Shown piece after piece: positions 6,081-40,582 of a stretch of 64,000 nt of DNA (positions within the stretch are counted from its first letter, which is position 1; each line of letters opens with the position of its first letter). Under the pieces are notes generated by a model. It was given only the letters and a program-made list of their open reading frames with translations, did no database searches and had not been told where the DNA came from. The position numbers and the translations under genes are program-made. Source of the stretch: a virus; the IMG/VR virus record IMGVR_UViG_3300046519_000190, positions 32,001 through 96,000 of that record, one strand, 5' to 3'.

Positions 6081-6775
6081 TATGCCCACCCACCAAAGTC
6101 TGTCTGCCCGTATTGCTTCGCTCGCTCAGCCATCATTTCGTCTTTGTAGGCTTGCGGTCGCAGAATAGAGCCAAGTCTTGTGAATGCAGCCCGGACATCA
6201 GCGTCGTCCATCGCCTTGCTCTCAAGCTTGGTGATGTACGCTGCGATTTCAGGGCTTACAGTGTTCAGGTACTCACGGGTGTAGCCGATCGTACCGGTAT
6301 TCATGCTGTGTAGCTTGGTTGAGCCCAGCGCTGCGACTCTGAACAGGTACACACGCTCATCGCCAACAACGTGGGCACACATCGGCACCCAGACCAGCTC
6401 ACAGCCTTTCCCGATGATCGGAGCGTTGGTGTTTGGACCGCCACCCTCGTACATCGCCGCGATCTGCTGTTTCATCTGCACCGGGTTCATACCCAGGTGA
6501 CGCACAGTCTGGAACAGGCTGTTCATCTTCCGGCACAGCCAGTCTTCTGCATCTGCATAGACTTGGAGAACGTCGTCGTTGATGACCACATTGTCTTCGC
6601 TGACTTCACGCAGGGCTTTGATGATCGCCGCCCCTTTGATAGTCACCGCGCGAATGGACACCTCTTTACCAAGCTCCATTCTGCGGATGTAGTCTTTAGA
6701 GAGTGCCCACTCTCTGCGGCGAAAAGTCTCGCCGCAAAGATCGGGATCAGTCTCTAATCCTTTGATTAGAGGCAT
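6080..6775 (-). CDS. hypothetical protein
   Basis: GAGGA RBS before ATG 6775; ends ...QTDFGGWA. Confidence 0.75.
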   Translation of the reverse strand: MPLIKGLETDPDLCGETFRRREWALSKDYIRRMELGKEVSIRAVTIKGAAIIKALREVSEDNVVINDDVLQVYADAEDWLCRKMNSLFQTVRHLGMNPVQMKQQIAAMYEGGGPNTNAPIIGKGCELVWVPMCAHVVGDERVYLFRVAALGSTKLHSMNTGTIGYTREYLNTVSPEIAAYITKLESKAMDDADVRAAFTRLGSILRPQAYKDEMMAERAKQYGQTDFGGWA

Positions 6776-6782
6776 CTTTTCC

Positions 6783-8735: not shown

Positions 8736-9820
8736 ACGGTAATGCTCTCGACTTCGGTGAGGATGTCCATGCACAGCTTCTCTACTTCTGGCTGTGTACT
8801 GGTCGCGGAGTTCGCACGAATCCAATCAGTCACAGACTGACGGACAGTTGGTGCGGTTGGAGCTGGAGTACCCGGCGCTGGACGCGCTGTCGCAGTACCC
8901 TTTGGAACCGGGATTGCATCGACGTTGCAACCGAGCGCGCCCAGACCAACGATGTGGTCACGGATCATGTCGATTTCGTCGTTGTCAGCTTCACCCAGGC
9001 GAACACGAATGAACGAGCCTTTGCACTGCTCGGCCGCTTCGTCATCGTCCCAGGACAGGTCGAAGTCTTTGAACTGCGGGCTGTTGTTCTTGAAGTGATT
9101 CACGCCAGTGTCATCGACGATGATGTGGCCGGCCAGAGTCTTCACGTCGCTCCAGGTTTGATGCGTCAGAGCACCCACGCTGTAGACTTCGCCTTCGAAC
9201 GCTTTGTGATTGTGGTAGTGACCGGAGAACACACGCTTGAAGCCCAGACGCTCCAGCTCTTTGGCGTAGAAGCCGTGATCAGGGATACCGAACAACACGC
9301 CGTTCACGGGCGCATGCAGCATGAGAGTGTAGCTGGAAGCGTCGTCGCCCAGGTCTTGAATCTCTGCAACCGCGTCGATGATGTGCTTGCGGACGTCATC
9401 GAGACTGTCATACCAGGGGATCATGACCACGCAGTCATCGTGGAAGGTCTTCGGACGGCTGACGATAGTCACGCCTTCGATTGGGCTCAGAGCTTCACAG
9501 GCGTTGCTCAGCGCTTCACTGTCACGGCTTTCGAGGTCGTGGTTGCCGGTCAGCACACGAATCTTCAAGCCTTTGATGGCGAGCTTGATGAACAGGTCTT
9601 TGACAGGGTTCAGAACCTTCGGGCTGACAGAGCCACGAACATGAAACAGGTCGCCGGTGATGTACAGGGTGTCACCACCGCTGCTCAGAACTTGATCGCC
9701 GGCAAGCTCAGTGGCATTGAGAATGTCTTGCAGTCGGCTGTTCACGCCGCTCGGGAGAATTCGTGAAAACTGGGACCATCCGTGCATGTGTACATCGGAG
9801 ATTACGCCATAAGGTTTCAT
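8732..9820 (-). CDS. SbcD/Mre11/gp47-like metallophosphoesterase nuclease
   Basis: SDVH, GDLFH, GNHD, GHYH motifs; adjacent to the SbcC-like gene. Confidence 0.92.
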   Translation of the reverse strand: MKPYGVISDVHMHGWSQFSRILPSGVNSRLQDILNATELAGDQVLSSGGDTLYITGDLFHVRGSVSPKVLNPVKDLFIKLAIKGLKIRVLTGNHDLESRDSEALSNACEALSPIEGVTIVSRPKTFHDDCVVMIPWYDSLDDVRKHIIDAVAEIQDLGDDASSYTLMLHAPVNGVLFGIPDHGFYAKELERLGFKRVFSGHYHNHKAFEGEVYSVGALTHQTWSDVKTLAGHIIVDDTGVNHFKNNSPQFKDFDLSWDDDEAAEQCKGSFIRVRLGEADNDEIDMIRDHIVGLGALGCNVDAIPVPKGTATARPAPGTPAPTAPTVRQSVTDWIRANSATSTQPEVEKLCMDILTEVESITV

Positions 9821-9854
9821 TGGTTGAGCGTCTCGCTGTTTGATTTGAGTTGCT

Positions 9855-9886
9855 ATTCTGCGCGATTGCGCATGGGCTTGCGTGGG
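9855..9886 (-). promoter_or_regulatory. conserved phage promoter-like element, copy 2
   Basis: CCCA-CGCAA-GCCC-N13-CAGAAT, upstream of the sbcD-like gene. Confidence 0.55.
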
Positions 9887-9914
9887 GTCTGCTAGCTACC
9901 CGAAGGTAGAATAG

Positions 9915-9939
9915 AAAAAGGACGGTTTCCCGTCCTTTT
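9915..9939 (-). terminator. Rho-independent terminator
   Basis: GGACGG-GAAA-CCGTCC followed by a T-run on the minus strand; A/T tracts on both sides. Confidence 0.75.
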
Positions 9940-9956
9940 CTTTGTCGCTCTGGAGC

Positions 9957-10376
9957 TTATGACCGACTGTTATTGATGGTCACGTTCTTGCTTTCTGCCG
10001 CTCGACGCTGAGCTGGCGACTTGCGCACGATCTTCCAGAGCAGGATCAAAGCTGCGAAACCCCAAGCGAAGTGCCAGTATGGAATCGTCTGATACACCGG
10101 CGGCAGCGATGGGAAGTACGTCAGACCCAACTGCATGTAGGTCCATGCGAACCACACGAAGAAGCCGACGACCATACCCGGCAGAAGGACCATCACGAAG
10201 ACGACCGCTGCGATTGCAGCCAGAAACAGCGCGACACCGACGATCACGACACCGGCCAGAATCAGGAACGATACGACCGGGCCGGAAGCTTTGATCTTCG
10301 CATCGATCTTCGGCTTGATGGTGCTTGCGTACAGGTTCTTCAAGGCTTCGAACTTGCGTTTCAGGTACTCTTTCAT
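9957..10376 (-). CDS. hypothetical membrane protein
   Basis: 139 aa with about 3 hydrophobic segments; ATGA overlap with recA. Confidence 0.75.
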   Translation of the reverse strand: MKEYLKRKFEALKNLYASTIKPKIDAKIKASGPVVSFLILAGVVIVGVALFLAAIAAVVFVMVLLPGMVVGFFVWFAWTYMQLGLTYFPSLPPVYQTIPYWHFAWGFAALILLWKIVRKSPAQRRAAESKNVTINNSRS

Positions 10377-11494
10377 TCTGCTTCTCCAACTTCTGTTTCG
10401 CCGCCTTCGGTCGGCAGGGTTTCGGACTCAGCGTCCGCTGTAGCCAGGTCTTCCACCTTCTCAGGAAGGAATGCCCGGAGTTTCTTCATCGCATCAGGGT
10501 CAGCCTGGAGCTTGGTTTCAACCTGGCTCTGATACAGCTTCTTGCCTTCCCAGATGATGTACTTGCCATCACGCGGCAGCAGGTCTTTGCGGACCAGGAA
10601 GTCGAGTGTAGACCCAACAACGTCAACTGTCGCACCAAAGCCGGTCATGTTGTACATCACACGCCACTTCGCACGCTGGAACGGACGAGTCACTTTGTTC
10701 TTGACCACGTTCGCGGTGATTTCCTGACCCAGCGTCTGCTTCTTGTCAGCGTCCTTCTCACCGTTGGTGATCATCTTGCGACCCAGGCTGATACGGATCG
10801 AAGCGTAGTATTCGGCAGCGTTACCACCTGGGGTAGTGGTTGGGTCGCCGTACATCACACCCGGCTTCATACGAATCTGGTTCAGCAAGATCACGGTCAT
10901 GTTGTAATCTTCCGCGAACTGAGCCAACTGAGGGTAGTTCTGACTGGTCGCAGTAGCGAGAGCCAGCTTGTCCTTCATGTTGATCCGGTCAGTGCGACGC
11001 TTGCCTTTGTCGTCGTACAGCTTGTCGTAAGGCACCATCGACGCAACCGAGTCGAACACCCAAACCAGGGGAGCTTCGTCCGGGATGAGCTTGTTCTTGC
11101 GAACGCCTTCGCAGAATGCCATTGCAGTCTGGATCGACTCTTCGAACGTCTCTGGGCGCTTGTAGACGAAGTTACCTTCATCTTCACCCACATTCATGCC
11201 CAACGACGCAGCGAGCAGTGGTTCGAAGCTACGTTCGTGGTCAGAGAAGCCGGCGATACCACCAGCGTCTTGCGCGGCCTTCATGATCATTGTGGCCAAG
11301 AAGGTCTTACCCGACGACGCTGGACCGAAAATCTCGATCATGCGGCCGCCTGGTACACCACCATCGTCGAAGCGACCGGAGAGTGCAGCGTCCAGCTCAG
11401 GGATGCCAGTAGACATCCAGTTTTTGATACCGACACGCTTAGCGTTACCGCCAATGATGCCTTCGAGTGCCAATGCGAGTTTAGACTTTGCCAT
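10373..11494 (-). CDS. recA: RecA/UvsX-like recombinase
   Basis: STGIPELD, GRMIEIFGPASSGKT, VFDSVA, NQIRMKPGVMYGDPTTTPGGNA, VVKNKV. Confidence 0.93.
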   Translation of the reverse strand: MAKSKLALALEGIIGGNAKRVGIKNWMSTGIPELDAALSGRFDDGGVPGGRMIEIFGPASSGKTFLATMIMKAAQDAGGIAGFSDHERSFEPLLAASLGMNVGEDEGNFVYKRPETFEESIQTAMAFCEGVRKNKLIPDEAPLVWVFDSVASMVPYDKLYDDKGKRRTDRINMKDKLALATATSQNYPQLAQFAEDYNMTVILLNQIRMKPGVMYGDPTTTPGGNAAEYYASIRISLGRKMITNGEKDADKKQTLGQEITANVVKNKVTRPFQRAKWRVMYNMTGFGATVDVVGSTLDFLVRKDLLPRDGKYIIWEGKKLYQSQVETKLQADPDAMKKLRAFLPEKVEDLATADAESETLPTEGGETEVGEAE

Positions 11495-11505
11495 CTGTTT
11501 GATCC

Positions 11506-12462
11506 TTATGCGAAGGTTTTGCGCCAGTTCTTCATGTCGGTGATGATCGTCATGAAGGCGTACTCGTGGCACAAATCAATGAAACCACTCTCGTTGAATG
11601 CCGACTTGAGAATGATCTGGTTGTTGATGATTTCGTTGCTGCGATGGCGCTTGCTGAGCAGGCTCATCAGTTGCATGTTCCGCTTGAACACTTCCCGGCC
11701 ATCACCGAAGACGAAGTTCTCGATCTTCTTGCGCCAGAACGACAGCTCTGGTGGCAGGTCAGACTTGCTGACTTCTTTCACAGGCAGACTGTCTGCCCAA
11801 GCGAACAGCTTGGCTACGCTGCCCCACTGCTTGAAGATCAGCGGTACTGCTTTGTCACCAATGCCTTCGACGCCTTTGATGTTGTCGCTGCCGTCGCCGA
11901 TCATTGCTTTCGACTGAGCGAACTCGACCACGTTCTTGCAGCCGGTCACTTCCTCGAAGTTGTTCACGTCGACAAACAGACCCTCAGTGCGAGGATCGAA
12001 CCAGTCAACGTCATCACAGACCATTTGAAGCCAGTCGTGATCACCGGATACCAACAGAATCTTCTGGTTCGGTGTGCGGTTGTGGACGATTGCTGATGCG
12101 AGGTCGTCTGCTTCATCGCCCTTTGCGAAGCGTTGCTCCAGACCCGCCAGCGACAGCGCTTGGCGAAGAATCGGAACCTGGCGCTTGTACTCACGGCGAG
12201 AGACTGCTTTCTCGGGAGTGTTGTCGCGCTTGCCTTTGTACTCAGGGTGAATCGCGTAACGCCATTTTGCTCTGTCATCCCACAAGCAGGCTGACTGAGT
12301 GCGCCCGGGTGTACCGAACTGCTCGATTGCCTTCTTCATCATTTTCAGACCGAAGAAGACAGCTTGAATTTCGCCGGTGCGGTGTTTCAGCACGCGAGCA
12401 TTGTGAGCGGCATACCCAATAGAGTTGCCGTCGATCAGGATCAGATCGTATTGCTTGGTCAT
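11506..12462 (-). CDS. 5'-3' exonuclease / flap endonuclease (T4 RNase H, PolI N-terminal family)
   Basis: LIDGNS, EYKGKR, DEADD, SGDHD, GDGSDNIKGVEGIG. Confidence 0.92.
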   Translation of the reverse strand: MTKQYDLILIDGNSIGYAAHNARVLKHRTGEIQAVFFGLKMMKKAIEQFGTPGRTQSACLWDDRAKWRYAIHPEYKGKRDNTPEKAVSRREYKRQVPILRQALSLAGLEQRFAKGDEADDLASAIVHNRTPNQKILLVSGDHDWLQMVCDDVDWFDPRTEGLFVDVNNFEEVTGCKNVVEFAQSKAMIGDGSDNIKGVEGIGDKAVPLIFKQWGSVAKLFAWADSLPVKEVSKSDLPPELSFWRKKIENFVFGDGREVFKRNMQLMSLLSKRHRSNEIINNQIILKSAFNESGFIDLCHEYAFMTIITDMKNWRKTFA

Positions 12463-12480
12463 GATTTGCGCCTCGAAAGA

Positions 12481-12507
12481 GAAGAAAAGGGGCTTTGCAG
12501 CCCCTTC
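12481..12507 (-). terminator. Rho-independent terminator after ssb
   Basis: AAGGGGCT-GCAA-AGCCCCTT followed by TTCTTC. Confidence 0.65.
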
Positions 12508-12526
12508 ACTTGATCCGCTTGGGTGA

Positions 12527-13369
12527 TTAACCCAGCAGCTCGTCCAGCTCGTCGAGGTCCGACAGATCGTCGGCAGCGGTGCTGCCACCTACAGAGCCTT
12601 TCGCAGTCGGACTGACCGTTTCGAACTCTGCATCATCGGCATCCGCGGACAGATCCGCCAATGCAGGATGGCTACCACGTTTTGCAGGGGAACCCGAGTT
12701 GCTCGGCAGGATGCCCACGATTGCGCCGACAGAGGTCAGAGCTTTCGTTTCACCAGCCGGGTTCTCTTGAGCTACGAACTCGTCGAGGTTCGGGAGGTTG
12801 GTCAGGAACTTCGCAGGAACTGGTTTCGACTTCGCAGCCGGCATGACAGTGTACTTGGTGTCCAGACCGGAGCCGGTACGGGTGATCTTGAGGTCTGTAC
12901 CTTCGTTGAGGTCGGTGATATCACCGTACTCGCCGATGAGGCCGCAGATTGCTTCGAACACGCCCTGGCCGACTTCCATGATCTGCACTTTTTCTGGCTC
13001 TGGGCCGGTCAGGTGCAGAACGTTCAGCAGGTAGCGCTGAGCGGACAATGCTTCTTTCAGCATCTTGGTCTGATCGTCCGAAGTCGATACAGCCATCAGC
13101 TTTTTGGCTGCTTCGCAGACTTCGCAAGGCTTGCCGAAAGTCTTGTCGCTGCATACGTACACCGCAGCAGGCTTACCAGCGCTTTCAGGGGTCTTGATGA
13201 AGTGCATGGCAAAGTCATGCCAGAATTGCTTCTCGTCACCACCACGCCAGCTTGGCAGCACGCGGTAGGTGTGAGTACCAGGTTGCGGCTTGAGAGTGTT
13301 CTGGCGCGATTTCTTCGCGGCCATGTCTTTCTGTTTGCCAGCAATCAGGTCTTGAATCGAAGTGCCCAT
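12527..13369 (-). CDS. T4 gp32-like single-stranded DNA-binding protein
   Basis: RVLP...HF...C..TFGKPCEVC zinc motif, D.TDLNEG.DLKI.RTG.G.DTKY, acidic tail DDLSDLDELDELLG. Confidence 0.85.
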   Translation of the reverse strand: MGTSIQDLIAGKQKDMAAKKSRQNTLKPQPGTHTYRVLPSWRGGDEKQFWHDFAMHFIKTPESAGKPAAVYVCSDKTFGKPCEVCEAAKKLMAVSTSDDQTKMLKEALSAQRYLLNVLHLTGPEPEKVQIMEVGQGVFEAICGLIGEYGDITDLNEGTDLKITRTGSGLDTKYTVMPAAKSKPVPAKFLTNLPNLDEFVAQENPAGETKALTSVGAIVGILPSNSGSPAKRGSHPALADLSADADDAEFETVSPTAKGSVGGSTAADDLSDLDELDELLG

Positions 13370-13553
13370 TTTGTATCTCCGCTTATATGTCGATCATGTC
13401 GATTAGGTTTGTATTGCGAGGTGTCGAACTGTCGAAATTTTCATCAGAAGGGATTATGCACCTGGGCTACTAACCTGGGCTTTAGCGCCCTTCTGATGTT
13501 GTCATTCTACTGCGTTGTTTCTTGCTGTGCTACAGGCAGATCAGAGGCAGAAA

Positions 13554-14183
13554 TCAGTCGCTCGAAGAGCTGCACGAACCGGAGTCGGAGCTGCTCGAAG
13601 AGGACGAAGAGCTGCACGACGAAGAGCCGCTGCTATCACCCCAAGAGCCGCTTGCACCACCGCCACCGAAGCTACCACCGCCACCGTGATGCGACGAATT
13701 GTGGCTAGAGCTACGAACAGGCTCATCGTCTGCGCTGCTGTTGAAGGCATACAGATCACGCTGCCGGCGTTGCTCTTCCTGGGTGTCATTGTCACGACGG
13801 CGTGCATCATCCGCTTCACGACGCTGGCGATCGTAGTAGGCATCGTCGCGCTCACGCTTGGTCTTGTCCTGACGATCATTGACCCGGGTTGGGCGAGGGT
13901 CGATTTTCGGGATAGGGTAGTTGGACTGCCCTTCCCGAGTAGAGCCCATGCGAACTACGCCAATTGGCTTGCGTGCGATGTCTTGCGGGCCTGCATCGAG
14001 TCGTGATTCGCGTATCGCCTTGTACAGATCACCACCTGGACGAAGACGGTCGGCTTCACGACGCTCATTTGCGCGGCGTTCTTGTGCTGCGATTTGACGA
14101 CGGCGCTTACGGTTCAAATAAACCGTGACGCCGGCTGCAACTACGAGGGAGGTCGTAGCGCAGCCTGCAATCAGTAAATCCAT
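13554..14183 (-). CDS. hypothetical membrane-anchored protein with Gly/Ser-rich tail
   Basis: N-terminal TM helix, Arg-rich region, GGGGSFGGGGASGSW then poly-Ser; AGGAG RBS. Confidence 0.75.
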   Translation of the reverse strand: MDLLIAGCATTSLVVAAGVTVYLNRKRRRQIAAQERRANERREADRLRPGGDLYKAIRESRLDAGPQDIARKPIGVVRMGSTREGQSNYPIPKIDPRPTRVNDRQDKTKRERDDAYYDRQRREADDARRRDNDTQEEQRRQRDLYAFNSSADDEPVRSSSHNSSHHGGGGSFGGGGASGSWGDSSGSSSCSSSSSSSSSDSGSCSSSSD

Positions 14184-14198
14184 TCTTCACACTCCTGG

Positions 14199-14279
14199 TT
14201 AGAAATCGCCGTAGCCTGTACCTGGACCATCATCGCCAGGCTTTGGGGCATCTTCATTATCGGGTTCGTCTTGGATCAT
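14199..14279 (-). CDS. putative 26-aa acidic peptide
   Basis: MIQDEPDNEDAPKPGDDGPGTGYGDF; ATG directly after the upstream TAA, GGAG RBS, fills the intergenic gap. Confidence 0.55.
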   Translation of the reverse strand: MIQDEPDNEDAPKPGDDGPGTGYGDF

Positions 14280-15584
14280 TTACATATTCTCCACAGCACG
14301 TTGACCCGGGTGTTCCTTCATACGAAGTTCACCCTGCTTTTCCAGTCGCAGGTCTGCACCCACTTGGATCAGCATGTCTTTACGATGACGGAAGCTGTCC
14401 GCCGCAGATGAAACCATCGATGCGATCGCTCGTGCCTCGTGAGCGCGTTCCTGAGCAGCTTGATAACCGCTGTCCTGGATGACCATCGCGTCGATGGATT
14501 TTTCGGTGAACTTCGTGCCGGCCATGACCATCGAATCGCGGAACTTCTGGTTCAGTTGCGCTTCCAGGAGTTCGACTTGCTGCTTCGCACGGTCAGACTG
14601 ATACGTAGCGTCTGCCGACAGTCGTGCGTAGTGGGCAAACAGCGCCGCTTGGCGAGTCATGCCGTCGTTGATGGTGGCTTCGGTGAAGTGCAGGTCTTTT
14701 TGAAGCTGGTCAGCGTCGATGAACGTGTTCAAGCCACCAACTTTCTTGGTCGGGGTCACAGACACCGGCTTCGATGGCGAGCTGACTGCCGCTTTCGGGG
14801 CAGGTGCTGCCGATGGTACTGACGCGAGCAATGCGTCCAGCTCGTCTTCGGTCGGTTCATCGCTGCCGCTCGCTTCTGCGTCTGCGAAAGCCTTTTCGAC
14901 TTTCTGGTTGCGCTCAGAAGCTTTAGCCGTCAGATCATCAACGACATAAGTGCCGTCAGCCTGCATGCCTGGTTTCAGCCTGGTTTCAGCCTCTACCGTG
15001 ATCGTCTCTTCGGCTTTAGGCTCGGTGAGTGCTTTCGCTTTCTTGAACGCCGCGCGCAGGTCTTTCTCGATCTGACCGATTTCGGAGTTCGCGTCAATCT
15101 TGGCGAGAACAGGCTCGGTGATTGCAGAGTGATCGGCATCAGGGTCCAGGCCAAATTCACCCGGCAGGCTCACCAACAGATCGATCACTTGCTCGGCCAG
15201 AGCAAGCTCTTTAGCCTGAGTGGCGTCTGGCGTTCCAACCATACCCAGCATCTTGGCTTGCTCAACGTCACCGCCGGCTGCTTCAAGCAATGCTGCGTCC
15301 AGTTGCTCCTGGGTGATTTCGGTTTCGAGGTCAGCAAGTGACGCCAGGTCATCGTCTTCGGCCGAAGGGGCGGGTTCAGCAGGCTTCGCAGCTACTGCTC
15401 TTGGACGAGTCTTGCGAGGTGGTTTCGGCAGCTCTTCAACGATTTCAGCATCGGTCACGTCGCTGTCGGTAACTGGATGCTTAGCCGTTGGGGCGTCAAG
15501 CTCGTCCAGTTGGCTGAGTTCGTCATCGTCAAGACCTGCAAGCAATGCTTCCAGTTCGTCGATGTCGTTCACTTCTTTGGTCAT
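14280..15584 (-). CDS. UvsY-like recombination mediator with long acidic disordered N-terminus
   Basis: C-terminal ~140 aa helical region (QAALFAHYA...KFTEKSIDAMV...SFRHRKDML) of UvsY type; lies upstream of ssb and recA. Confidence 0.6.
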   Translation of the reverse strand: MTKEVNDIDELEALLAGLDDDELSQLDELDAPTAKHPVTDSDVTDAEIVEELPKPPRKTRPRAVAAKPAEPAPSAEDDDLASLADLETEITQEQLDAALLEAAGGDVEQAKMLGMVGTPDATQAKELALAEQVIDLLVSLPGEFGLDPDADHSAITEPVLAKIDANSEIGQIEKDLRAAFKKAKALTEPKAEETITVEAETRLKPGMQADGTYVVDDLTAKASERNQKVEKAFADAEASGSDEPTEDELDALLASVPSAAPAPKAAVSSPSKPVSVTPTKKVGGLNTFIDADQLQKDLHFTEATINDGMTRQAALFAHYARLSADATYQSDRAKQQVELLEAQLNQKFRDSMVMAGTKFTEKSIDAMVIQDSGYQAAQERAHEARAIASMVSSAADSFRHRKDMLIQVGADLRLEKQGELRMKEHPGQRAVENM

Positions 15585-23068: not shown

Positions 23069-23104
23069 AGTTTCAACCTGTTTGAGTGTTTGTTTACAGA
23101 ACAG

Positions 23105-23136
23105 AGTATGCGCGAAAGAAACTGGGGACACGCGGT
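23105..23136 (-). promoter_or_regulatory. conserved phage promoter-like element, copy 5 (degenerate)
   Basis: ACCG-CGTGT-CCCC-N13-CATACT. Confidence 0.45.
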
Positions 23137-29511: not shown

Positions 29512-29547
29512 TCTCGTTTGATGTGTAAAGAAAAAGACTCAGACGCG

Positions 29548-29579
29548 AGTATGCACGTCTGAGTCTGGTGTGTTGCGGG
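29548..29579 (-). promoter_or_regulatory. conserved phage promoter-like element, copy 8
   Basis: CCCG-CAACA-CACC-N13-CATACT; -10 in the loop of 11-bp inverted repeat 29535-29566, followed by a T-run (may also act as terminator for dnaB). Confidence 0.55.
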
Positions 29580-29585
29580 CTACGA

Positions 29586-31058
29586 TCAGGTGATTTCGAG
29601 AATCCCTGTCATGAAGCGCATCTTGCTGAGCTCCTGCGTAATTTTCAGGGTGAACTCGCCGGCCTGGTTACGAGAGGCTGCAAAGTAGATTCGGGCTTCG
29701 CCTTTGGTCTTCTCTTCGTCCGTGCGGTTGATGGTCAACACCAAGTCAGCGATACGGATTTTGTTGAAGTCTTCTGCGGCGTGTTCTGCTTTGGCCACGT
29801 CTGCTGTGAAGCCAGCTCGGTTGGTCTGTGTCGCTGTCAGAACTGCGGCGTTCTCTTCGTGTGCGATTGCCCGCAGACCCAGCCAAACCTGCTTCGACTC
29901 GTTGATGTCGTTACCGGATTTGATTTCAGCGGCCATGATGTCGGCGTAGTCGACCACGATCATGTCGAAGATGATGCCTTCGGCACGGTAGAATTCAATC
30001 ACCTTGCGCAGATCAGCGCAGGTCATTTGACCCGACGGATACTCGACGACCTTGAGGTGGCCAGGCTTGCGAAGGCCAGCACGGTCTTTAACGCCCTTCT
30101 CGACGTCATTGCCCCGTGAACTGAGGTCGCTCATGTCGATGCCCGCCACGTTGGCGTCCATACGTTCCATGATGATCTTGGCGGCTACTTCGAGGGTCAC
30201 GTACAGAACGTTGAAGCCTTTCTGAGAGCCCGCGAGAGCCCAGTGAAGCAGACCCGTTGACTTACCCTTCTTGGCACCACCCATGACGACGGACAGTTCT
30301 TTACGGCCCCATCCGTGGTGGTACAACATCTTGTCGAGTTTCGGTAGACCCGAGGTGATACCGTCCTTCGTGATCAGGCCGGCTTCAACATCACGACGAT
30401 ACTGTGTCCGGGTTTCGATGTCGTTCCAGTAGTCGTTGTCTTCGACCACAGCCTGCGCGCCCGTTGCGAACGCCTTCTGCATGATCTTCTGAGCCTTCTC
30501 ATGCTCGCCTTTCTCGACGAGTGGAATGGTCATCATGTATGCGGCTGTGATTGCTTGCTTCTTGGCGAACTCTGCGACCTTATCTACAGCGTAGTCACGG
30601 GCCGGGAGAGCTCCAGTCAGGATTTTCTTGAGCGCTGTGACCATATCCGGGACGTCATCGTCACGAATCGCCTTCTCAGCTTTCGCATCCTTGATCAGTT
30701 CAGCCCATTCACTGCGCTCGGGCAGACGACGGTACTTCTCATGATAGGTCGTTGTGATGTGAACCAGCGCCGACAGTGAGCGCTCTTCGAAGTATTCAGG
30801 TCGTACCAGGCCGTCTACGCGACGATAGAAAGCTTCGTCACGGCAGATCAGCGCCGCGATCTTCTGCTGAAACTCACCTTCGAACTGAAAGGCTTCTGAG
30901 CCTTCTGGGAGAGTAGGGAGCGGGGTGATGCGCTTTGCTGCCTGCATCACGGTTTCGAGTTCGTCATCCAGGTCGAGGTCTTCTTCCGGTGCGACGATAC
31001 CCATCTGTCTGGCCATCTGCTCCGCCAGACTATCCTTGATTTCGGATTCGTCAGACAT
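29586..31058 (-). CDS. DnaB/gp41-like replicative helicase
   Basis: GGAKKGKST Walker A, YVTLE, VVDYAD, TATQTNR, ASRN; GGAG RBS inside the hfq-like gene. Confidence 0.92.
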   Translation of the reverse strand: MSDESEIKDSLAEQMARQMGIVAPEEDLDLDDELETVMQAAKRITPLPTLPEGSEAFQFEGEFQQKIAALICRDEAFYRRVDGLVRPEYFEERSLSALVHITTTYHEKYRRLPERSEWAELIKDAKAEKAIRDDDVPDMVTALKKILTGALPARDYAVDKVAEFAKKQAITAAYMMTIPLVEKGEHEKAQKIMQKAFATGAQAVVEDNDYWNDIETRTQYRRDVEAGLITKDGITSGLPKLDKMLYHHGWGRKELSVVMGGAKKGKSTGLLHWALAGSQKGFNVLYVTLEVAAKIIMERMDANVAGIDMSDLSSRGNDVEKGVKDRAGLRKPGHLKVVEYPSGQMTCADLRKVIEFYRAEGIIFDMIVVDYADIMAAEIKSGNDINESKQVWLGLRAIAHEENAAVLTATQTNRAGFTADVAKAEHAAEDFNKIRIADLVLTINRTDEEKTKGEARIYFAASRNQAGEFTLKITQELSKMRFMTGILEIT

Positions 31059-31296
31059 TGCAGGCTCCAAAGCACTTGATGGCCGACTTGAAGATTGTGC
31101 GGTACTGACCATCGCTGTGACGGGTGATGGTGATGGTGTAGTTGTCGAACTGCGTTACCTGACCGCGTAGCTGCGTGCCGTCGAGCATGTCGAATACAGC
31201 CAAGCTGTTCTCACGAATCAAGGTCTTGAGGATCGTCTGATGCCCGTTCTTGAAATCCTGGGGCTTCTTGTTGGAGTGGGTGTTCGGAGAGTTCAT
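31051..31296 (-). CDS. hfq: Hfq-like (Sm-fold) protein
   Basis: L..L.RE...DG..LRGQV..FDNYTI......IFKSAI aligns with Hfq Sm1 (NG.KLQGQI.SFDQF.I) and Sm2 (YKHAI); AGGA RBS. Confidence 0.8.
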   Translation of the reverse strand: MNSPNTHSNKKPQDFKNGHQTILKTLIRENSLAVFDMLDGTQLRGQVTQFDNYTITITRHSDGQYRTIFKSAIKCFGACNV

Positions 31297-31367
31297 GGTT
31301 GATCCTGCTAAGGGTGAGTGTTTGAGTGTTGCGATTGCGAGTATACGCGCAGCGAGAGCGGCAAAAA

Positions 31368-32153
31368 CTATTGGGAGAGAACTGCCGCACGGCGAAGCAG
31401 ATCATTGCCGGTCTTGGGGAATGCGAACATGACCTGATCGCGGGTGATTTGGTTCTTGTCCATGATCGTGGAGAGCACACCTTCCGGCATGTTCGAACGC
31501 TTGATCTTGGTGAACAGGAAATTCAGGTAGTCGATCTGCTCCGGGCCTTCCTGAAAGTTGTCGGTGTTGAATGCTTCGTGGGCTGCGTAAAACGTGCTGT
31601 GAGACGTGCGGGCTACCCAACGCTCAACAACGTACTCGACCAGTGACGGAAGCCCTTGTAGGTGCTCTGGGACCGTTCTGGTGTACATCTGCGAGCTGCT
31701 GGGCAAGAAGTGCATGCGGGCTTTGTCGGCAAACAGCATTGCGTGCTCGCAATAGAAGTCATACGGACACCCAATGCGGTCTGCCATCTGACGACCCTTC
31801 CAAAAACCAGTGATCGAGCGAGCGTCCAGTTCGAAGATGCAAGCCTTCTTCAAGCCTTTCATGTTCAAACCCATCCACAGGTCTGTACGCCGGCTGACAG
31901 CACGCTTGAGAGCCGCAGCATAGTGCTGAGCGTAGAGCTGGGTTGCTTGGGTGGGGTGCAGGAACCGGTAGTCCCAGAACTTGGTCTTATTGAGCTCCGC
32001 CTCTTCCTGGAGAAGCTTGATGGGGATGAACCGGAGTGCGAGCGCATCACACTCAAGAGAGGACCATTCAGCGCCGGGATTTTGAGGGTTCATCGTGGAG
32101 TGCTCTGCGTGATTCGAGCGACGATGATAGAGAGAAATGATCTGGGTTTGCAA
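31368..32153 (-). CDS. hypothetical protein upstream of the helicase (start uncertain; alternative ATG at 32093)
   Basis: 261-aa ORF containing TKFWDYRFLHP; first gene of the replication block. Confidence 0.75.
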   Translation of the reverse strand: MQTQIISLYHRRSNHAEHSTMNPQNPGAEWSSLECDALALRFIPIKLLQEEAELNKTKFWDYRFLHPTQATQLYAQHYAAALKRAVSRRTDLWMGLNMKGLKKACIFELDARSITGFWKGRQMADRIGCPYDFYCEHAMLFADKARMHFLPSSSQMYTRTVPEHLQGLPSLVEYVVERWVARTSHSTFYAAHEAFNTDNFQEGPEQIDYLNFLFTKIKRSNMPEGVLSTIMDKNQITRDQVMFAFPKTGNDLLRRAAVLSQ

Positions 32154-32250: not shown

Positions 32251-33021
32251 TCAGTCGCGGTAAGCCTTCACGACTTCACGAACCAGAGGGTCGCGGGTGA
32301 TGTCGTCTTCGTCGAACTCGAACCGGCCCATCGTCTTGGCGTTGCGGAAACGGTGGGTGGCGTCTGCCAGGCCATTGTCATCGCCGGCACGGTCAGACTG
32401 ACGCAAGTCACCTGCTACGACGACCTTCGAACCTTCACCCAGGCGAGTCAGGAACATCTGCATCTGGCCTTTAGTGCTGTTCTGAGCTTCGTCCAGCAGA
32501 ACGAAACTGTTACGGAAGGTCGAACCACGCATCATCATCAGAGGTGCGCCGACGATCTTCTTGTAGGCGACGTAGCTTTCGACCTTCTTGGCGCCCAGCT
32601 TGCCTTCCAGAACTTCAAGAGCTGGGCCGATCCAGGCTTTGAACTTCTCCCATTCGGTGCCAGGCAGGAAGCCCATGTCTTCGTCGCAACCCACCATTGG
32701 ACGAGTGATGATGATCCGTTCGATTTCGTTGGCTTCGAGCATTTCGCAGGCCAGGCTGATGCTCAGGAAGGTCTTGCCGGTGCCCGCGGGACCGGTGATG
32801 AATGCCAGCCGGGTGTCTTCGATGACCTGAATGCAGCGCGCCTGTGATTCGTTGCGAGGCTCCAACTCGCCAAAGCGGATTCGGTTCATTTCGCGTTCGA
32901 GCTTGGCATCCGTTTCCCGTTGGGATGCGTTCAGCTCTGGGAACTTTTGACCATGCTTACGCTCGCGGCGTGCTTCTTCGCGGCGTTCACGACGATTTTG
33001 ACGGCTTTGATTCCCGGACAT
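32251..33021 (-). CDS. phoH: PhoH-family ATPase
   Basis: GPAGTGKT, ITRP, GFLPG, RGSTF, LLDEAQN, LTRLGEGSK, GD..QSD. Confidence 0.93.
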   Translation of the reverse strand: MSGNQSRQNRRERREEARRERKHGQKFPELNASQRETDAKLEREMNRIRFGELEPRNESQARCIQVIEDTRLAFITGPAGTGKTFLSISLACEMLEANEIERIIITRPMVGCDEDMGFLPGTEWEKFKAWIGPALEVLEGKLGAKKVESYVAYKKIVGAPLMMMRGSTFRNSFVLLDEAQNSTKGQMQMFLTRLGEGSKVVVAGDLRQSDRAGDDNGLADATHRFRNAKTMGRFEFDEDDITRDPLVREVVKAYRD

Positions 33022-35659: not shown

Positions 35660-38600
35660 TTAGAAGTCGCAGTCTGCGGCCATAGTGAAGTCAGCGTCAG
35701 AGGTTGAGAGAGTGTTACCAGGCAAACGGAAGCTGCCCACCCCACCACTCGAATCCGGGCCGTAGTCTGCGCCACCAGTGTTACCCACAGTCAGATACAG
35801 AGTTGGCGAAGCGCGCTTCGTTACCTTGTACGGTCTGTGGTTCCAGCGAGGCTGGTTGGTTGCAACAGTACCTGGAACCTCTTCGTAATACCGTTGGCAA
35901 CGACGAATCTCTTCGCTGTAGTCAATCCGCTCGAAAGTGGTTGCAGCCAGACCTTGCTCAAGCTGCACGTATGCAACCTGAACCCATGCACCAGCAGAGC
36001 TGCCCCATGCAGAGATGCCAGTACCAGCCGGGCCGGTGATGTAGTTACCACTCACCCACTTGTTGAGGTTTGCAGCAGTTACAGCCAGCGAACCGTTGTT
36101 CAGACCGCAGAAGAGGATCGACAAGCCGGCGCCCGTACCCTGACTGATGGTAAATGGCAGAGCTGGAAGGTTGATTTCCATTTTCTGCGGCGTACCAGCA
36201 GTCGCGGTGTAGCTGAACTGTGCCACATACGAGAAGGCGTTATCACCACTGCGAATCGAAACGTAATACTTGCCGCCTACCGACGCTGCGAACCAGAAAG
36301 ACAAGCTGGCTGGCTGCGAGGAAAGCTCGTAGCAGTTGGCTTGTTCGATGATATGGCTCGGGCCAGCCCAGTAGAAAGCACTCCCCAGGTTCGTTACCAC
36401 GGCGTTACAAGTGGTTCGAGCCCAGAAGGTCGGAACGTTGTTCACACCAACAGCGGCATTTCGAGACCCGGCGATAGTCCCGCCAGCCCCACCGTTGGTG
36501 AATTTCCAACGGTCACAGATGTAGCCGTTTGCAGTGCCTGCAATAGCTGCACTGGTAGGACGGTTAGCAACCTGGAACGCGCCGTTCATGACGCGGTTAC
36601 GACCCATCACGTTGAGCGAAGCTCGGTTACGATCAGGCCAGGCGTTGCTGAACACTTCATACCAAATGCCAGTGAACACACCCCCGGTGACGATACGCCA
36701 GAACTCACGGTTGACGTTGGTGCCGCTGTAGCAGCGGTAGCGCTGATATTGGGTGTTCGCATCCCACTGCTGAACTTCCAACAAGTCACCGGCAGCGGAA
36801 GCGCCAATATCTGGAGGGAAGCCGGTAGCGCCAGTAGTAATACGGTACGCACCGGAAGCCAACAGTTGGTTAATGTTGGTTGTCGATTGAGCTGGACCGC
36901 CGATACCGAAGTCACCCACCTTGAGCAGACGACCGGTAGTAGCGTCGAGACCAGAACTGGTTGGAACCAGACCCAATGCAGTCTGAGCACCCGCTTGAGT
37001 GGTCGCACCAGTACCGCCCTGTGCAATCGACAGCGCTGTAGTCAGACCAGCCAGAGAGGTGATGTCAGAGTTTGCACCAGCAGCAGCGCTCTCTTTCCAC
37101 GCAGTCCATACGCCACCAGCCTGAGTACGCCAGAACATACGGCTCGTGCCGCCCAACTGAACCGCCATCTGCATGCAGCCGCCAGCGTTGTATGGGGCGG
37201 TGATCACAGACAGGTTGCCCGCAAGCGGGATGTTCAGCGTCGTGTTAGTGGTACGACAGAAACCGCCCAGAGTCTCAGCGTTCAGATCGGTAGCCAGCGG
37301 GCCAATCGCAGTACCCACACCCAATGCAGCCAGAGCGTTCTGGACAAACGCGGTGCTCGCGGCGTCAGCGGTGTTGGTGCCATCAGCCAGAGTGGTGATA
37401 CCCAGGCCGTTGTTGATGTTGACCTTACCAGTTGTGAGGTTGACAGCAAACGGGCGGAAGGCGTTGTAGTTGCCGAACTGATCACCACTGTTGGTCAGCA
37501 TCAGGTACAGCGAACCACCGTCGTTACGCCAGAAGGTGCCGTAGTTGCCAGAGACGATTCGGAAGTTGTTGCCGCTCGTGGAAGCAATCTCGCCAGCAGC
37601 GAGGATCGAATCGAAACCGGTGTTCGAGTAGCTGATGCCAGTACCGATCACAGTCAGATCAGCGGAGCGACCTTGCGCAACCGTTTTACCAGCGTTACCT
37701 ACAGCGCCCGCACGAATGGTTACACCGAAGTTGCCCGTGGTCAGGTTGTAAACGGTGTATCTGCCGCTCACTGCCGGAACGATCACGCTCACGTCTGCGC
37801 CCAGAGCCCCTGTGAGGTACAGAACCCCGTTGGCTGCTTCTGCTGCGGTCAGAGTGACGTTGGTGTTGCTCAGCGCCTTACTAGTGATGCCGCTGATCAT
37901 GCCTGCAACCAGAGCTGGGATACCCAGAGTGGCTTGAGCTGCCGCTGCGGTGGTGTCATCCAGCACAGTACGCATGAAGGTAGTCACACCGGTGTTCATG
38001 GAAATGATTTCGCTGAACACAGGAGGGTTTGCAGCCGAAGAGCAGAAACCAGTCCAAGTACGACCGTTCGAGTAATCAACGAACAGACCGGTGTAGCCGC
38101 CCAGAGTGTCGCGACGACCAGTGATAGTCCAGATACCGAAGCTCGGGTTTACGCCAGCTTGGTCAGTCGGCACGGTGCAGCCGTTGGTCTTCGAGGCACC
38201 TACGTCAATGAAGCCGCTCCAACCAGATGGCTTGCCCCAGTCAGCGTCAGAGGCGAGAGCGATCTTGATACCGGCGACGTTGCCGATACCGAAGTCACCC
38301 ACCTTCATCACGCTACCCTGAGTGGTATCCAGGTTCGAAGTGGTTTTGACCAGGTTGCTCGACGACCAGGATTCAGACCATGCAGTCCACACGTTGTTGT
38401 TCGACGAACGCTGGAACATGCGAGTTTGGCTCTGCGGCATTGCAATTTGCTGGCAGTAGTTGTTCGCATTGGTCATGGTGATCAGCTTGCAAGAACCTGC
38501 AACCGGGCCGTCTGTGCAAGCAGAGCCCATCAGGTAGAAGCCAGTCGCCTTCATGTCGTTGTAGCTACCCGACGCTACGTCTGCCAGGTCTGTTGCGCCC

Positions 38601-40582
38601 AGACCGAACGCGCCTACTTGCAGCAGAGCGTTCTTGGTGTTGTCGTAGAAGTCGTCTTGAATCGGCAGAGTCTTGCGCTTCGAGATATTCGGCTCTGCGA
38701 TGTAGATCACACCGCCAGTAGGGAATGTCGATTCAGCTACAACCATCATTCTCATGCGGTAGGTGGTCGCCGAAGCTTTGACGGTGCCGTACACACGCTG
38801 CCAGCCGCCTTTGGTGTTGTCATACGTAGCAACACGAGTGTTCTGAATCGTAGCGCCAGTCGCTGTGTATTCACCAACGAACAGGCTCAGAGTTGTGCCG
38901 GTAGTCGCGTTACCGGTTGCAGTGAGGTATGCAGATAGATCGAGCTTCTCGCCTGGTGCGACTGGAATCCAGTCATCGGCGTTAACAGATGGGAAGACCA
39001 GGTATCCGGCGTTACCAGAAGCTGTGCGAGTCAAGGTTGCCATGCGAGCGCTTGGGCAACCTGCTGGGACGGCAGAGTCTGCTGCTACGGCGTAACCCAG
39101 AGTGTGACCAGCGCTGTTGATGATCGGCAAAGAACCGCTTGCAACCAACATCGGGTTGGCTACCCAGTTGTCCGGCATCTTGTCAGTGCCACCCAGGTTG
39201 CCCGAGGAAGCGGCAGCAGCGGAAGCAGCAGCATCAGCAGCGCTTTGAGCGGCAGCAGTCTTGCTGGTGTTCGCGTTGGTCTCGGACGTTGCAGCGTTGG
39301 TAGCAGAAGTCGCAGCGGCAGTCTTGCTGGTGTTCGCAGCAGTAGCGCTGGCAGCAGCGTTCGTTTCGCTGGTCTTCGAGTTGGTCTCAGAAGTCTTCGC
39401 AGCGGTCTGACTTGCAAGCGCAGCAGCAGCCGAAGCAGCAGCGTTGGTTTCACTGGTGCCGGCGTTCGTCTTGCTCGTTGCAGCCTGAGTAGCGCTGGTA
39501 GCAGCAGCAGTTGCCGAGCCAGCAGCAGCAACCTTGCTGGAGTTCGCGTTGGTTTCACTGGTAGCGGCGTTTGTAGCCGAAGTTGCAGCGGCAGTCTTCG
39601 AAGCCAGAGCGTTCGTTTCAGAGGTCGCAGCGGCCACTTTCGAAGCGTTTGCGTTGGTCTCAGAAGTCGAAGCGTTGGTAGCCGAAGTAGCAGCAGCCAA
39701 TTTCGAGGTGTTCGCAGCAGTAGCAGAGCCGGCAGCGTTGGTCTCAGAAGTACCAGCAGCGTTCTTGCTCGCCAATGCAGCGGCAGCACTCGCAGCGGCG
39801 TTGGTTTCCGAAGTCTTGGAGTTCGTTTCGCTGGTCTTCGAGTTCGTTTCCGAAGTCTTCGCAGCGGTCTGACTTGCCAACGATGCGGCAGCAGAAGTAG
39901 CCGAAGCTGTTGCGGAGTTTGCAGCGGCCACCTTCGACGCATTCACGGTGCTTTCGCTACCAGCAGCGTTGGTTGCGGAAGTAGCAGCAGCAGTCGCAGA
40001 ACCTGCGGCCGCAGTAGCACTACCAGCAGCAGCGGTCTTCGAAGTGTTGGCGTTGGTCTCAGAGGTCTTCGCGTTGGTCTCAGAGGTCTTCGCAGCGGTT
40101 TGGCTCGCAAGTGCGGCAGTGGCGCTTGTCTTCGCAGCAGTCGCTTGGTTCTGAGCATCGGTGTAACCGAACGACAGAAGTTCCGGGCACGCGAACAGGC
40201 GAGTCGTACCGTAGCGGTCAGTGATCGGGTAGAAACCGTTGCCGTTCGGGCCACCAGTCTTCGTACCAGTCTGCCAATCGGTGAACTCGGCCATGTTGGT
40301 CTGACGGTCAGACAAGAAGGCTTCGATCTTGACGGTCAGATCACGGAAGTTGACCGCTTGCACAAAGCGAACGATCACGTATTTGAAGGAGCCGGATACC
40401 TTCGAAGCGACATCGACCTTGATATGAGTGTCGTCATTGACGGACACCGCCTCAAAGCACTGGTTGCTTTCGCAGATGATCAGGTCGCCAGGGGAAACGT
40501 TGGTCGAAAACGCAGTACCAACACCGACGAGAACGTCACTGTTGGCTGTCAGCGTCAGCGTGCCTTCACGATATGCTCTCAC
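35660..40582 (-). CDS. long side tail fibre
   Basis: N-terminal G.GT.F attachment region, Ala/Ser/Thr heptad repeats, repeated knob modules, C-terminal RRCQRYY. Confidence 0.9.
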   Translation of the reverse strand: MRAYREGTLTLTANSDVLVGVGTAFSTNVSPGDLIICESNQCFEAVSVNDDTHIKVDVASKVSGSFKYVIVRFVQAVNFRDLTVKIEAFLSDRQTNMAEFTDWQTGTKTGGPNGNGFYPITDRYGTTRLFACPELLSFGYTDAQNQATAAKTSATAALASQTAAKTSETNAKTSETNANTSKTAAAGSATAAAGSATAAATSATNAAGSESTVNASKVAAANSATASATSAAASLASQTAAKTSETNSKTSETNSKTSETNAAASAAAALASKNAAGTSETNAAGSATAANTSKLAAATSATNASTSETNANASKVAAATSETNALASKTAAATSATNAATSETNANSSKVAAAGSATAAATSATQAATSKTNAGTSETNAAASAAAALASQTAAKTSETNSKTSETNAAASATAANTSKTAAATSATNAATSETNANTSKTAAAQSAADAAASAAAASSGNLGGTDKMPDNWVANPMLVASGSLPIINSAGHTLGYAVAADSAVPAGCPSARMATLTRTASGNAGYLVFPSVNADDWIPVAPGEKLDLSAYLTATGNATTGTTLSLFVGEYTATGATIQNTRVATYDNTKGGWQRVYGTVKASATTYRMRMMVVAESTFPTGGVIYIAEPNISKRKTLPIQDDFYDNTKNALLQVGAFGLGATDLADVASGSYNDMKATGFYLMGSACTDGPVAGSCKLITMTNANNYCQQIAMPQSQTRMFQRSSNNNVWTAWSESWSSSNLVKTTSNLDTTQGSVMKVGDFGIGNVAGIKIALASDADWGKPSGWSGFIDVGASKTNGCTVPTDQAGVNPSFGIWTITGRRDTLGGYTGLFVDYSNGRTWTGFCSSAANPPVFSEIISMNTGVTTFMRTVLDDTTAAAAQATLGIPALVAGMISGITSKALSNTNVTLTAAEAANGVLYLTGALGADVSVIVPAVSGRYTVYNLTTGNFGVTIRAGAVGNAGKTVAQGRSADLTVIGTGISYSNTGFDSILAAGEIASTSGNNFRIVSGNYGTFWRNDGGSLYLMLTNSGDQFGNYNAFRPFAVNLTTGKVNINNGLGITTLADGTNTADAASTAFVQNALAALGVGTAIGPLATDLNAETLGGFCRTTNTTLNIPLAGNLSVITAPYNAGGCMQMAVQLGGTSRMFWRTQAGGVWTAWKESAAAGANSDITSLAGLTTALSIAQGGTGATTQAGAQTALGLVPTSSGLDATTGRLLKVGDFGIGGPAQSTTNINQLLASGAYRITTGATGFPPDIGASAAGDLLEVQQWDANTQYQRYRCYSGTNVNREFWRIVTGGVFTGIWYEVFSNAWPDRNRASLNVMGRNRVMNGAFQVANRPTSAAIAGTANGYICDRWKFTNGGAGGTIAGSRNAAVGVNNVPTFWARTTCNAVVTNLGSAFYWAGPSHIIEQANCYELSSQPASLSFWFAASVGGKYYVSIRSGDNAFSYVAQFSYTATAGTPQKMEINLPALPFTISQGTGAGLSILFCGLNNGSLAVTAANLNKWVSGNYITGPAGTGISAWGSSAGAWVQVAYVQLEQGLAATTFERIDYSEEIRRCQRYYEEVPGTVATNQPRWNHRPYKVTKRASPTLYLTVGNTGGADYGPDSSGGVGSFRLPGNTLSTSDADFTMAADCDF
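39215..40150 (-). repeat. coding heptad repeats (AKTSETNA / AATSATNA) of the tail fibre
   Basis: degenerate 21-bp tandem repeats such as GCGAAGACCTCTGAGACCAAC. Confidence 0.85.

Follow-up and report, generated by a model that had tools for sequence, protein, structure and literature searches.

Hfq is a central RNA chaperone in many bacteria, and phages exploit the Hfq of their hosts and encode small RNAs (sRNAs) that bind it. Two features of the bacterial protein matter for what follows: residue H57 takes part both in recognising the 3' end of the RNA and in organising the hexamer, and the reduced rim arginine patch of the Gram-positive Hfq proteins of Bacillus subtilis and Staphylococcus aureus goes with weak RNA-annealing activity. 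A full-text search of the literature turned up no study of a phage-encoded Hfq, in agreement with an earlier note on this DNA, made from the sequence alone, which knew of no well-characterised phage Hfq system. Here we describe an Hfq-like gene carried by a virus directly ahead of its dnaB-like helicase gene, in a stretch of 64,000 nucleotides (positions 32,001 to 96,000 of the IMG/VR record IMGVR_UViG_3300046519_000190). We call this whole stretch the window, and positions are those of the window unless another record is named. The source record, inside which the window falls, is a complete virus of 110,851 bp with direct terminal repeats. The virus falls in the Nickievirus group: the window's flanks show about 84% DNA identity to members of that genus that infect Pseudomonas syringae (nickie, Nican01, phiK7B1, ZY21, and hairong). 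Six records cover these five phages, and each has an orthologue of the Hfq-like gene at the corresponding position.

What was already known of this gene is a label: among the Nickievirus records, only the GenBank record of Nican01 names the orthologue hfq. The paper on Nican01 does not mention the gene (PMC11256456), and a survey of jumbo phages, which treats PhoH as RNA related, makes no mention of Hfq (PMC7824862). New are the phage-only subfamily to which the protein belongs, the conservation of its proximal face, the fixed gene block in which it lies, its fast protein evolution, and its dispensability. The features of the locus are collected in Table 1.

Table 1. Features of the hfq-dnaB locus and the genes upstream of it
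Feature	Position	Strand	Evidence
Hfq-like (Sm-fold) gene, 81 amino acids (aa)	31051..31296	-	Open reading frame (ORF), Pfam PF17209, AlphaFold2 (AF2), Foldseek, orthologues in place in Nickievirus
DnaB-like replicative helicase gene	29586..31058	-	Pfam DnaB_C, E = 2e-15; phrog_19, E = 1e-73
AGGA ribosome-binding site, 6 nt 5' of hfq ATG	31303..31306	-	Sequence; purine-rich at the same spot in relatives
GGAG Shine-Dalgarno sequence of dnaB, within hfq codons G77-A78	31065..31068	-	GGAGC conserved
GCGCGTATACT, conserved promoter-like or regulatory element of the hfq-dnaB unit, contains TATACT	31340..31350	-	Alignment of relatives' intergenic regions
CACTCAAACA leader motif	31319..31328	-	Conserved in the Nickievirus-clade intergenic alignment
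Intrinsic-terminator-like hairpin (13 pairs and a T run) after dnaB	29535..29566	-	Sequence; a strong hairpin
241-aa protein gene (phrog_2500), directly upstream of the Hfq-like gene	31368..32093	-	phrog_2500, E = 2e-74; in all loci examined
Sigma-70-like promoter match (TTGCAA, 18 nt, TATCAT) before the phrog_2500 gene	32124..32153	-	Consensus match only
PhoH-like ATPase gene, first of the conserved four-gene block	32251..33021	-	Pfam PhoH, E = 1e-64

A phage-only branch of the Hfq family

The gene runs on the minus strand from an ATG at 31296-31294 to a TGA at 31053-31051, and its product matches the Pfam Hfq family PF17209 with an E-value of 1.9e-9, its score of 37.5 bits exceeding the curated gathering threshold of 27. 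The scores stay below the cut-offs of the NCBIfam equivalog TIGR02383 (31.5 against 61.7 bits) and of NF001602 (27.1 against 95). An AF2 model of the monomer, computed from an alignment of 36 homologues, reached a predicted local distance difference test score (pLDDT) of 86, and it replaced an earlier run with 10 close homologues (pLDDT 58.7). The model has a helix (residues 18-28) followed by five strands (residues 32-37, 42-50, 54-59, 65-69, and 73-78), and its top Foldseek matches are all solved Hfq structures (probability 1.00; template modelling score 0.8-0.93, normalised to the target). By family profile and by predicted fold, the ORF is a genuine member of the Hfq (Sm-fold) family. The homology to Hfq that the earlier note had read by eye, with a Pfam search and a fold prediction as its checks, thus holds. 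PHROGs has no family for the protein, and the defence and counter-defence models of PADLOC returned no match for it.

Among sequences in the Protein Data Bank (PDB), the closest are the Hfq proteins of Bacillus subtilis (3AHU/3HSB; E = 1.9e-7) and Listeria (4NL2/4NOY), with E-values ranging to 6e-6, followed by that of Caulobacter (6GWK). In the same search the Pseudomonas aeruginosa protein (1U1S) reached only E = 0.36 and that of Escherichia coli about 0.4; by BLASTP, identity to E. coli Hfq is 31% across 35 residues. With bacterial Hfq (PF17209, TIGR02383) the phage protein shares the N-terminal helix and five strands, the G34 and D40 positions of Sm1, the Sm2 core F/Y-K-x-A-I, an aromatic residue at the F42 position, K56, a similar size, and an overall basic character. 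It departs from bacterial Hfq in falling below the equivalog cut-off, in an invariant histidine at the Q8 position, in a basic N-terminal extension and a variable loop 4, in the lack of an aromatic residue at Y25, in isoleucine at R16 and a single remaining rim arginine, and, within the Nickievirus clade, in serine at H57. It further differs in being found in phage records only, always before dnaB, and in being dispensable. The Gram-positive proteins (B. subtilis; Staphylococcus aureus, 1KQ1), which are its top-scoring relatives, resemble it in their reduced rim (RKEN in B. subtilis versus IREN here), but they keep the distal aromatic residue, Q8, and H57 and are encoded by chromosomal housekeeping genes.

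BFVD contains other small Sm-like barrels encoded by viruses, from mycobacteriophages Phabba and Tonenili ('Hfq-like domain' proteins), from ATV (ORF86), and from Gordonia phages, none of which bears a name beyond a domain label in the match list. They are only 14-20% identical to the phage protein, their structural scores are weak, and neither a common signature nor a common gene context emerged. A further weak BFVD match, from Stenotrophomonas phage Moby, was set aside, having no PF17209 match.

Searched with a profile of 10 close homologues, 1.84 billion representative proteins yielded only 51 clusters at E ≤ 1e-3. PF17209 was matched by all 36 of the relatives that we aligned (best E = 1.9e-13), and several members of the subfamily lie on contigs of 105-113 kb. 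The core motif of the subfamily found no relative in 185,579 prokaryote species (one genome each), a family motif scan of the JGI metagenomes likewise returned none, and within 50,697 phage records the subfamily is confined to Nickievirus. Its signature is common to phages from varied samples whose DnaB proteins are only 38-45% identical. We therefore recognise a distinct small Hfq-like subfamily, found so far only in phage records or phage-sized contigs. One metagenomic member (P0039; 190 aa) carries two Hfq-like domains in tandem on one polypeptide.

A canonical Hfq was also sought in the 50,697 phage records, where tblastn with E. coli Hfq matched only bacterial or misfiled entries. One of these, filed as 'Bacteriophage sp.' (MT835489.1, positions 6134-14343), carries a canonical hfq whose product is 47% identical to E. 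coli Hfq. The gene is flanked by ORFs of 677, 311, and 405 aa, in the order and with the sizes of bacterial mutL-miaA-hfq-hflX, and the record is probably a bacterial contig filed as phage.

Conserved and altered RNA-binding faces

Residues of the phage protein are numbered as those of E. coli Hfq plus 11; the alignment is ungapped through Sm1 and then takes a 2-residue insertion before Sm2. Conservation was computed over the 36 aligned relatives. Aligned to E. coli Hfq, the residues that the earlier note had listed as kept (L12, L15, R17, E18, G29, L32, G34, F39, D40, I44, K56, A58, and I59) are indeed kept, and those listed as changed (Y25D, I30T, K31Q, R16I, R19N, Q8H, D9Q, and H57S) are changed. 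Its wider reading, that the RNA-binding faces are naturally altered, survives for the distal face and the rim but is over-stated for the proximal face. Conservation is strongest in the proximal pocket, which does not look disabled: Q8H is invariant and a hallmark of the subfamily, F42Y is a conservative change, and the lysine at K56 is retained.

In the proximal pocket, the positions Q8, Q41, F42, K56, and H57 are here H19, N52, Y53, K70, and S71, so that the aromatic residue and the lysine are retained. H19 and K70 belong to the residues that are invariant in the relatives, together with L23, G45, D51, and F76, and nearly invariant are G18, T/S-Q-F at 48-50, T-I-T at 54-56, T67, and F69. Position 53 is Y, F, or W in 32 of the 36, the Q41 position is N or K, and position 71 is histidine in 31, with serine occurring only within the Nickievirus clade. 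At the distal face, Y25, I30, and K31 are replaced by D36, T41, and Q42, and no canonical aromatic-based ARN site is present; few columns vary more than these (entropy 2.9-3.5 bits), and none of them holds an aromatic residue in any relative. At the rim, R16, R17, and R19 correspond to I27, R28, and N30, which leaves R28 as the sole arginine in place of a patch, and isoleucine takes the R16 position in 28 of the relatives. A basic N-terminal extension of at least 17 residues is conserved within the clade (here with K-K-P-Q-D-F-K-N-G-H), and loop 4 differs in length, with 0 to about 30 inserted residues even between close relatives. Judged from this alignment, the proximal face together with the N-terminal extension appears as the constrained surface and the distal face does not.

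Rates of nonsynonymous (dN) and synonymous (dS) substitution, computed between the window and four close relatives, give a similar partition. For hfq, dS is 0.67-0.98 and equals that of the PhoH, phrog_2500, and DnaB genes, and dN is 4-6 times that of these neighbours. Over all ten pairs among the five phages, dN/dS of the whole gene is 0.2-0.7, against 0.04-0.19 for the same three neighbours. By segment, the close relatives show dN/dS of 0.12 in the helix, 0.16 in the Sm1 strand, and 0.28 in Sm2, rising to 0.62 in the distal beta1-beta2 segment and 0.70 in loop 4. Because hfq has the dS of its neighbours and a dN/dS below 1, the gene is real, and the same equality of dS with the flanking genes rules out cassette swapping as the source of the low identity among the Hfq-like proteins.

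These patterns lead us to give about an even chance (roughly 0.5) to the protein being a non-essential RNA-binding ring of which one face is used. By homology it would form a ring, as the fold and the conserved beta4/beta5 residues F69, I73, and F76 suggest. Its proximal face, with the Gly-His pair, N or K at Q41, the aromatic residue at F42, the lysine at K56, and the basic N-terminal tail, would bind single-stranded U-rich RNA. Classical matchmaking between sRNA and mRNA, or repression of the Hfq/Crc type, is unlikely, because the distal ARN site is gone and a single rim arginine is left. Of the three functions that the earlier note had offered, a re-specified RNA binder is the best fit. Three points weigh against the one-face ring: the model is of a monomer, the faces being assigned through the alignment to E. 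coli Hfq and not on a modelled ring; H57 is serine in the Nickievirus clade, so that even proximal binding may be altered; and a role in RNA binding only leaves the constant position ahead of dnaB unexplained.

The fast evolution of the gene and its frequent loss (see below) are typical of genes that interact with the host, and a kept proximal pocket with the distal face and rim lost is what an RNA sink would need. Both would suit an antagonist of host Hfq, acting either through subunits that mix into host hexamers or as a separate ring that soaks up host sRNAs by its proximal face but is unable to hand them on to mRNAs. Of these two modes the sink is the more plausible. The first, put forward in the earlier note as a dominant-negative subunit that poisons host hexamers, found no support, the similarity to the P. 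aeruginosa and E. coli proteins not being that of a recent copy of a host Hfq. Similarity to gamma-proteobacterial Hfq in general is very low, and mixed rings are not favoured by kinship, because Gram-positive Hfq proteins score better. Moreover, a loop 4 that close relatives extend by up to about 30 residues is hard to square with a tightly matched heteromer, the same signature is common to distantly related phages from varied samples, and H57S in the Nickievirus clade weakens the case for binding of RNA 3' ends. Taken together, we regard antagonism of host Hfq as improbable.

Coupling to dnaB and loss in relatives

The stop codon of hfq and the ATG of dnaB (31058-31056) overlap by 8 nt as ATGTCTGA, as had been read in the earlier note; the ribosome-binding site that it had ascribed to hfq is likewise in place. 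In the five loci with the 8-nt overlap, GGAGC lies 6-11 nt 5' of the dnaB ATG, and the same holds for a truncated copy of the gene described below. Across the nine loci in which it was measured, the Hfq/DnaB junction varies from -8 to +8 nt; in the distant loci L017 and L018 the overlap is 1-4 nt. The order PhoH, phrog_2500 protein, Hfq-like protein, DnaB is found in every hfq-bearing locus, including those with DnaB 38-45% identical, and the PhoH-like gene was found wherever a locus reaches far enough upstream. In L017 and L018 the block is followed by a primase gene. The proposed coupling of the Hfq-like gene to dnaB is thus borne out by the overlap, by the dnaB ribosome-binding site embedded in hfq, and by constant adjacency.

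Upstream of hfq, the TATACT hexamer that had been taken for a -10 box of the gene itself is present at 31340-31345, but it comes without a usable -35 box, and a generic sigma-70 scan made no call upstream of the Hfq-like gene. The hexamer lies within the 11-nt element GCGCGTATACT, which occurs once in the window, is identical in four Nickievirus relatives, and is one base off in hairong. This element is retained in two relatives from which hfq has been deleted (L026, with one change, and L030) and therefore belongs to the hfq-dnaB unit and not to hfq alone. We envisage a two-gene unit composed of the GCGCGTATACT element, a leader, hfq as the first cistron, dnaB, and a terminator. Synthesis of the Hfq-like protein would probably coincide with that of the helicase, since the final codons of hfq contain the ribosome-binding site of dnaB.

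Presence and absence of the gene were followed in 17 IMG/VR loci recovered with the phrog_2500 protein as the anchor, by hidden Markov model searches for the Hfq-like ORF. It was found in 11 of these 17 and additionally in L017 and L018; six loci keep dnaB without it (L026, L030, L036, and L037-L039). The DnaB proteins of L026 and L030 are 86% and 87% identical to that of the window. In L026 the deletion has spared the leader together with the ribosome-binding site and start codon of hfq, and a remnant ORF of 14 codons (within L026:4211-4318) retains GGAGC and, at its end, the ATGTCTGA overlap with the dnaB start; from its sequence, this remnant reads as a natural leader cistron kept only for translational coupling. 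L030 has a clean deletion that joins the leader straight to the dnaB ATG. The genome of L026 (G001) is 108,018 bp long, has direct terminal repeats, and is 100% complete according to CheckV, and no Hfq-like match was found elsewhere in the genomes G001, G002, and G003.

On the DnaB tree, one clade, nested within the Hfq-bearing phages, unites L026 with L030 (support 96/97), and a second unites L036 with L037. Two separate hfq-less clades require at least two changes, and the remnant in L026 identifies the first of these, in the L026 and L030 clade, as a loss. The Hfq-like gene is a dispensable, repeatedly lost accessory gene. A partner gene lost along with it was sought and rejected: of the 161 ORFs of the source genome, hfq alone combined presence in three complete genomes that bear Hfq with absence from the two genomes that lack it. 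The DNA-level version of this comparison was too noisy to use.

If a 14-codon remnant suffices for coupling, and the dnaB ribosome-binding site sits in the last hfq codons, the full gene might itself survive mainly to bring ribosomes to dnaB as a leader cistron, a decaying passenger with a functionless protein. We consider this very improbable, because selection is position specific, with invariant residues across the 36 relatives and the low dN/dS of the helix, Sm1, and Sm2 given above, and because the Sm-fold model is confident.

The position of the gene, directly before dnaB wherever it occurs, with tight junctions that persist even to DnaB proteins 38-45% identical and with primase following in L017 and L018, raises instead the possibility of a replication accessory factor. 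Such a ring would work with DnaB and primase as a modulator, not strictly needed, of priming or of helicase loading. It might, for example, hold an origin transcript, an R-loop, or an RNA primer, or bind single-stranded DNA. The earlier note had named a hexameric partner of the helicase as its third function, and of this the constant adjacency and coupling stand; an obligatory role does not, since close relatives have deleted hfq and kept dnaB, and co-occurrence does not extend to all relatives. The complete genome G001, and G002 as well, show exactly this, with no copy of hfq elsewhere. The conserved order could also simply have been passed down in a single phage lineage, tight junctions between genes are frequent in this genome, and the conserved residues are those of the Hfq RNA pocket. 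A replication factor of this kind therefore seems unlikely to us, although less so than antagonism of host Hfq. The known helicase loaders lambda P, SPP1 G39P, and T4 gp59 are likewise products of small genes beside a replicative helicase gene, but they have no similarity in sequence or fold to the Hfq-like protein. An essential loader, moreover, would not be missing, as this protein is, from complete relatives that look viable and in which the helicase persists. Its fast evolution and its deletion in close relatives mark the gene as accessory and not as a core part of replication.

A more specific form of the one-face ring, which we hold only tentatively, is that this phage-only Sm-ring lineage was re-purposed as a binder acting where RNA meets DNA replication, either taking U-rich RNA 3' ends for the helicase-primase or serving as an sRNA sink that would disable Hfq-dependent control in the host while the phage replicates. 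Its targets may be origin transcripts, primers, or host sRNAs. If true, this would be the first defined function for a virus-encoded Hfq. The subfamily in any case offers a natural experiment in which one RNA face was kept and two were discarded, an N-terminal tail was added, and the protein was tied to the replicative helicase and yet is dispensable. With cultured phages on P. syringae (nickie, Nican01, phiK7B1, ZY21, and hairong) and natural deletions that spare dnaB, its function is directly testable.

Leaders, neighbouring genes, and other observations

The leader motif CACTCAAACA has a second exact copy at 23079-23088, upstream of a cobS-like gene. As a genome-wide motif it was rejected, with 9 matches against 6.1 expected, a difference that is not significant and amounts to no enrichment across the window. 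The cobS-like gene is preceded by GCGCATACT, which is similar to GCGCGTATACT, and then by CACTCAAACA. The two leaders (23079-23112 and 31319-31350, both on the minus strand), which precede the cobS-like gene and hfq, respectively, thus have in common GCGC(G)ATACT followed 11-16 nt on by CACTCAAACA, and they may represent a phage-specific class of promoter and leader.

The phrog_2500 protein found no match in Pfam, NCBIfam, PDB sequences, or the Atlas. It has a highly conserved core, W-K-G-R-Q-M-A-D-R followed by Y-D-F-Y-C-E, and could be the missing replication initiator, a helicase loader, or an RNA enzyme working with PhoH. The DnaB-like helicase begins with an acidic N-terminal extension (residues 1-45; 30920-31058, minus strand) whose motif D-S-L-A-E-Q-M-A-R-Q-M-G is conserved in the clade of phages of about 110 kb; it is absent from the distant helicases of L017 and L018, which still follow an Hfq-like gene.

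A block of PhoH, phrog_2500-like, Hfq-like, and DnaB genes also occurs in a distant relative (IMGVR_UViG_2711768162_000009; L033, genome G004). Because IMG/VR classes this record as a provirus, part of the wider lineage may be temperate. Scans of the window for Rfam families and tRNAs returned nothing. Elsewhere in the window, an ORF of 1640 codons (35660-40582, minus strand; 67660-72582 of the source genome, G000) had no tblastn match of half its length in five related genomes, and it is a hypervariable large gene, possibly one that determines host range.

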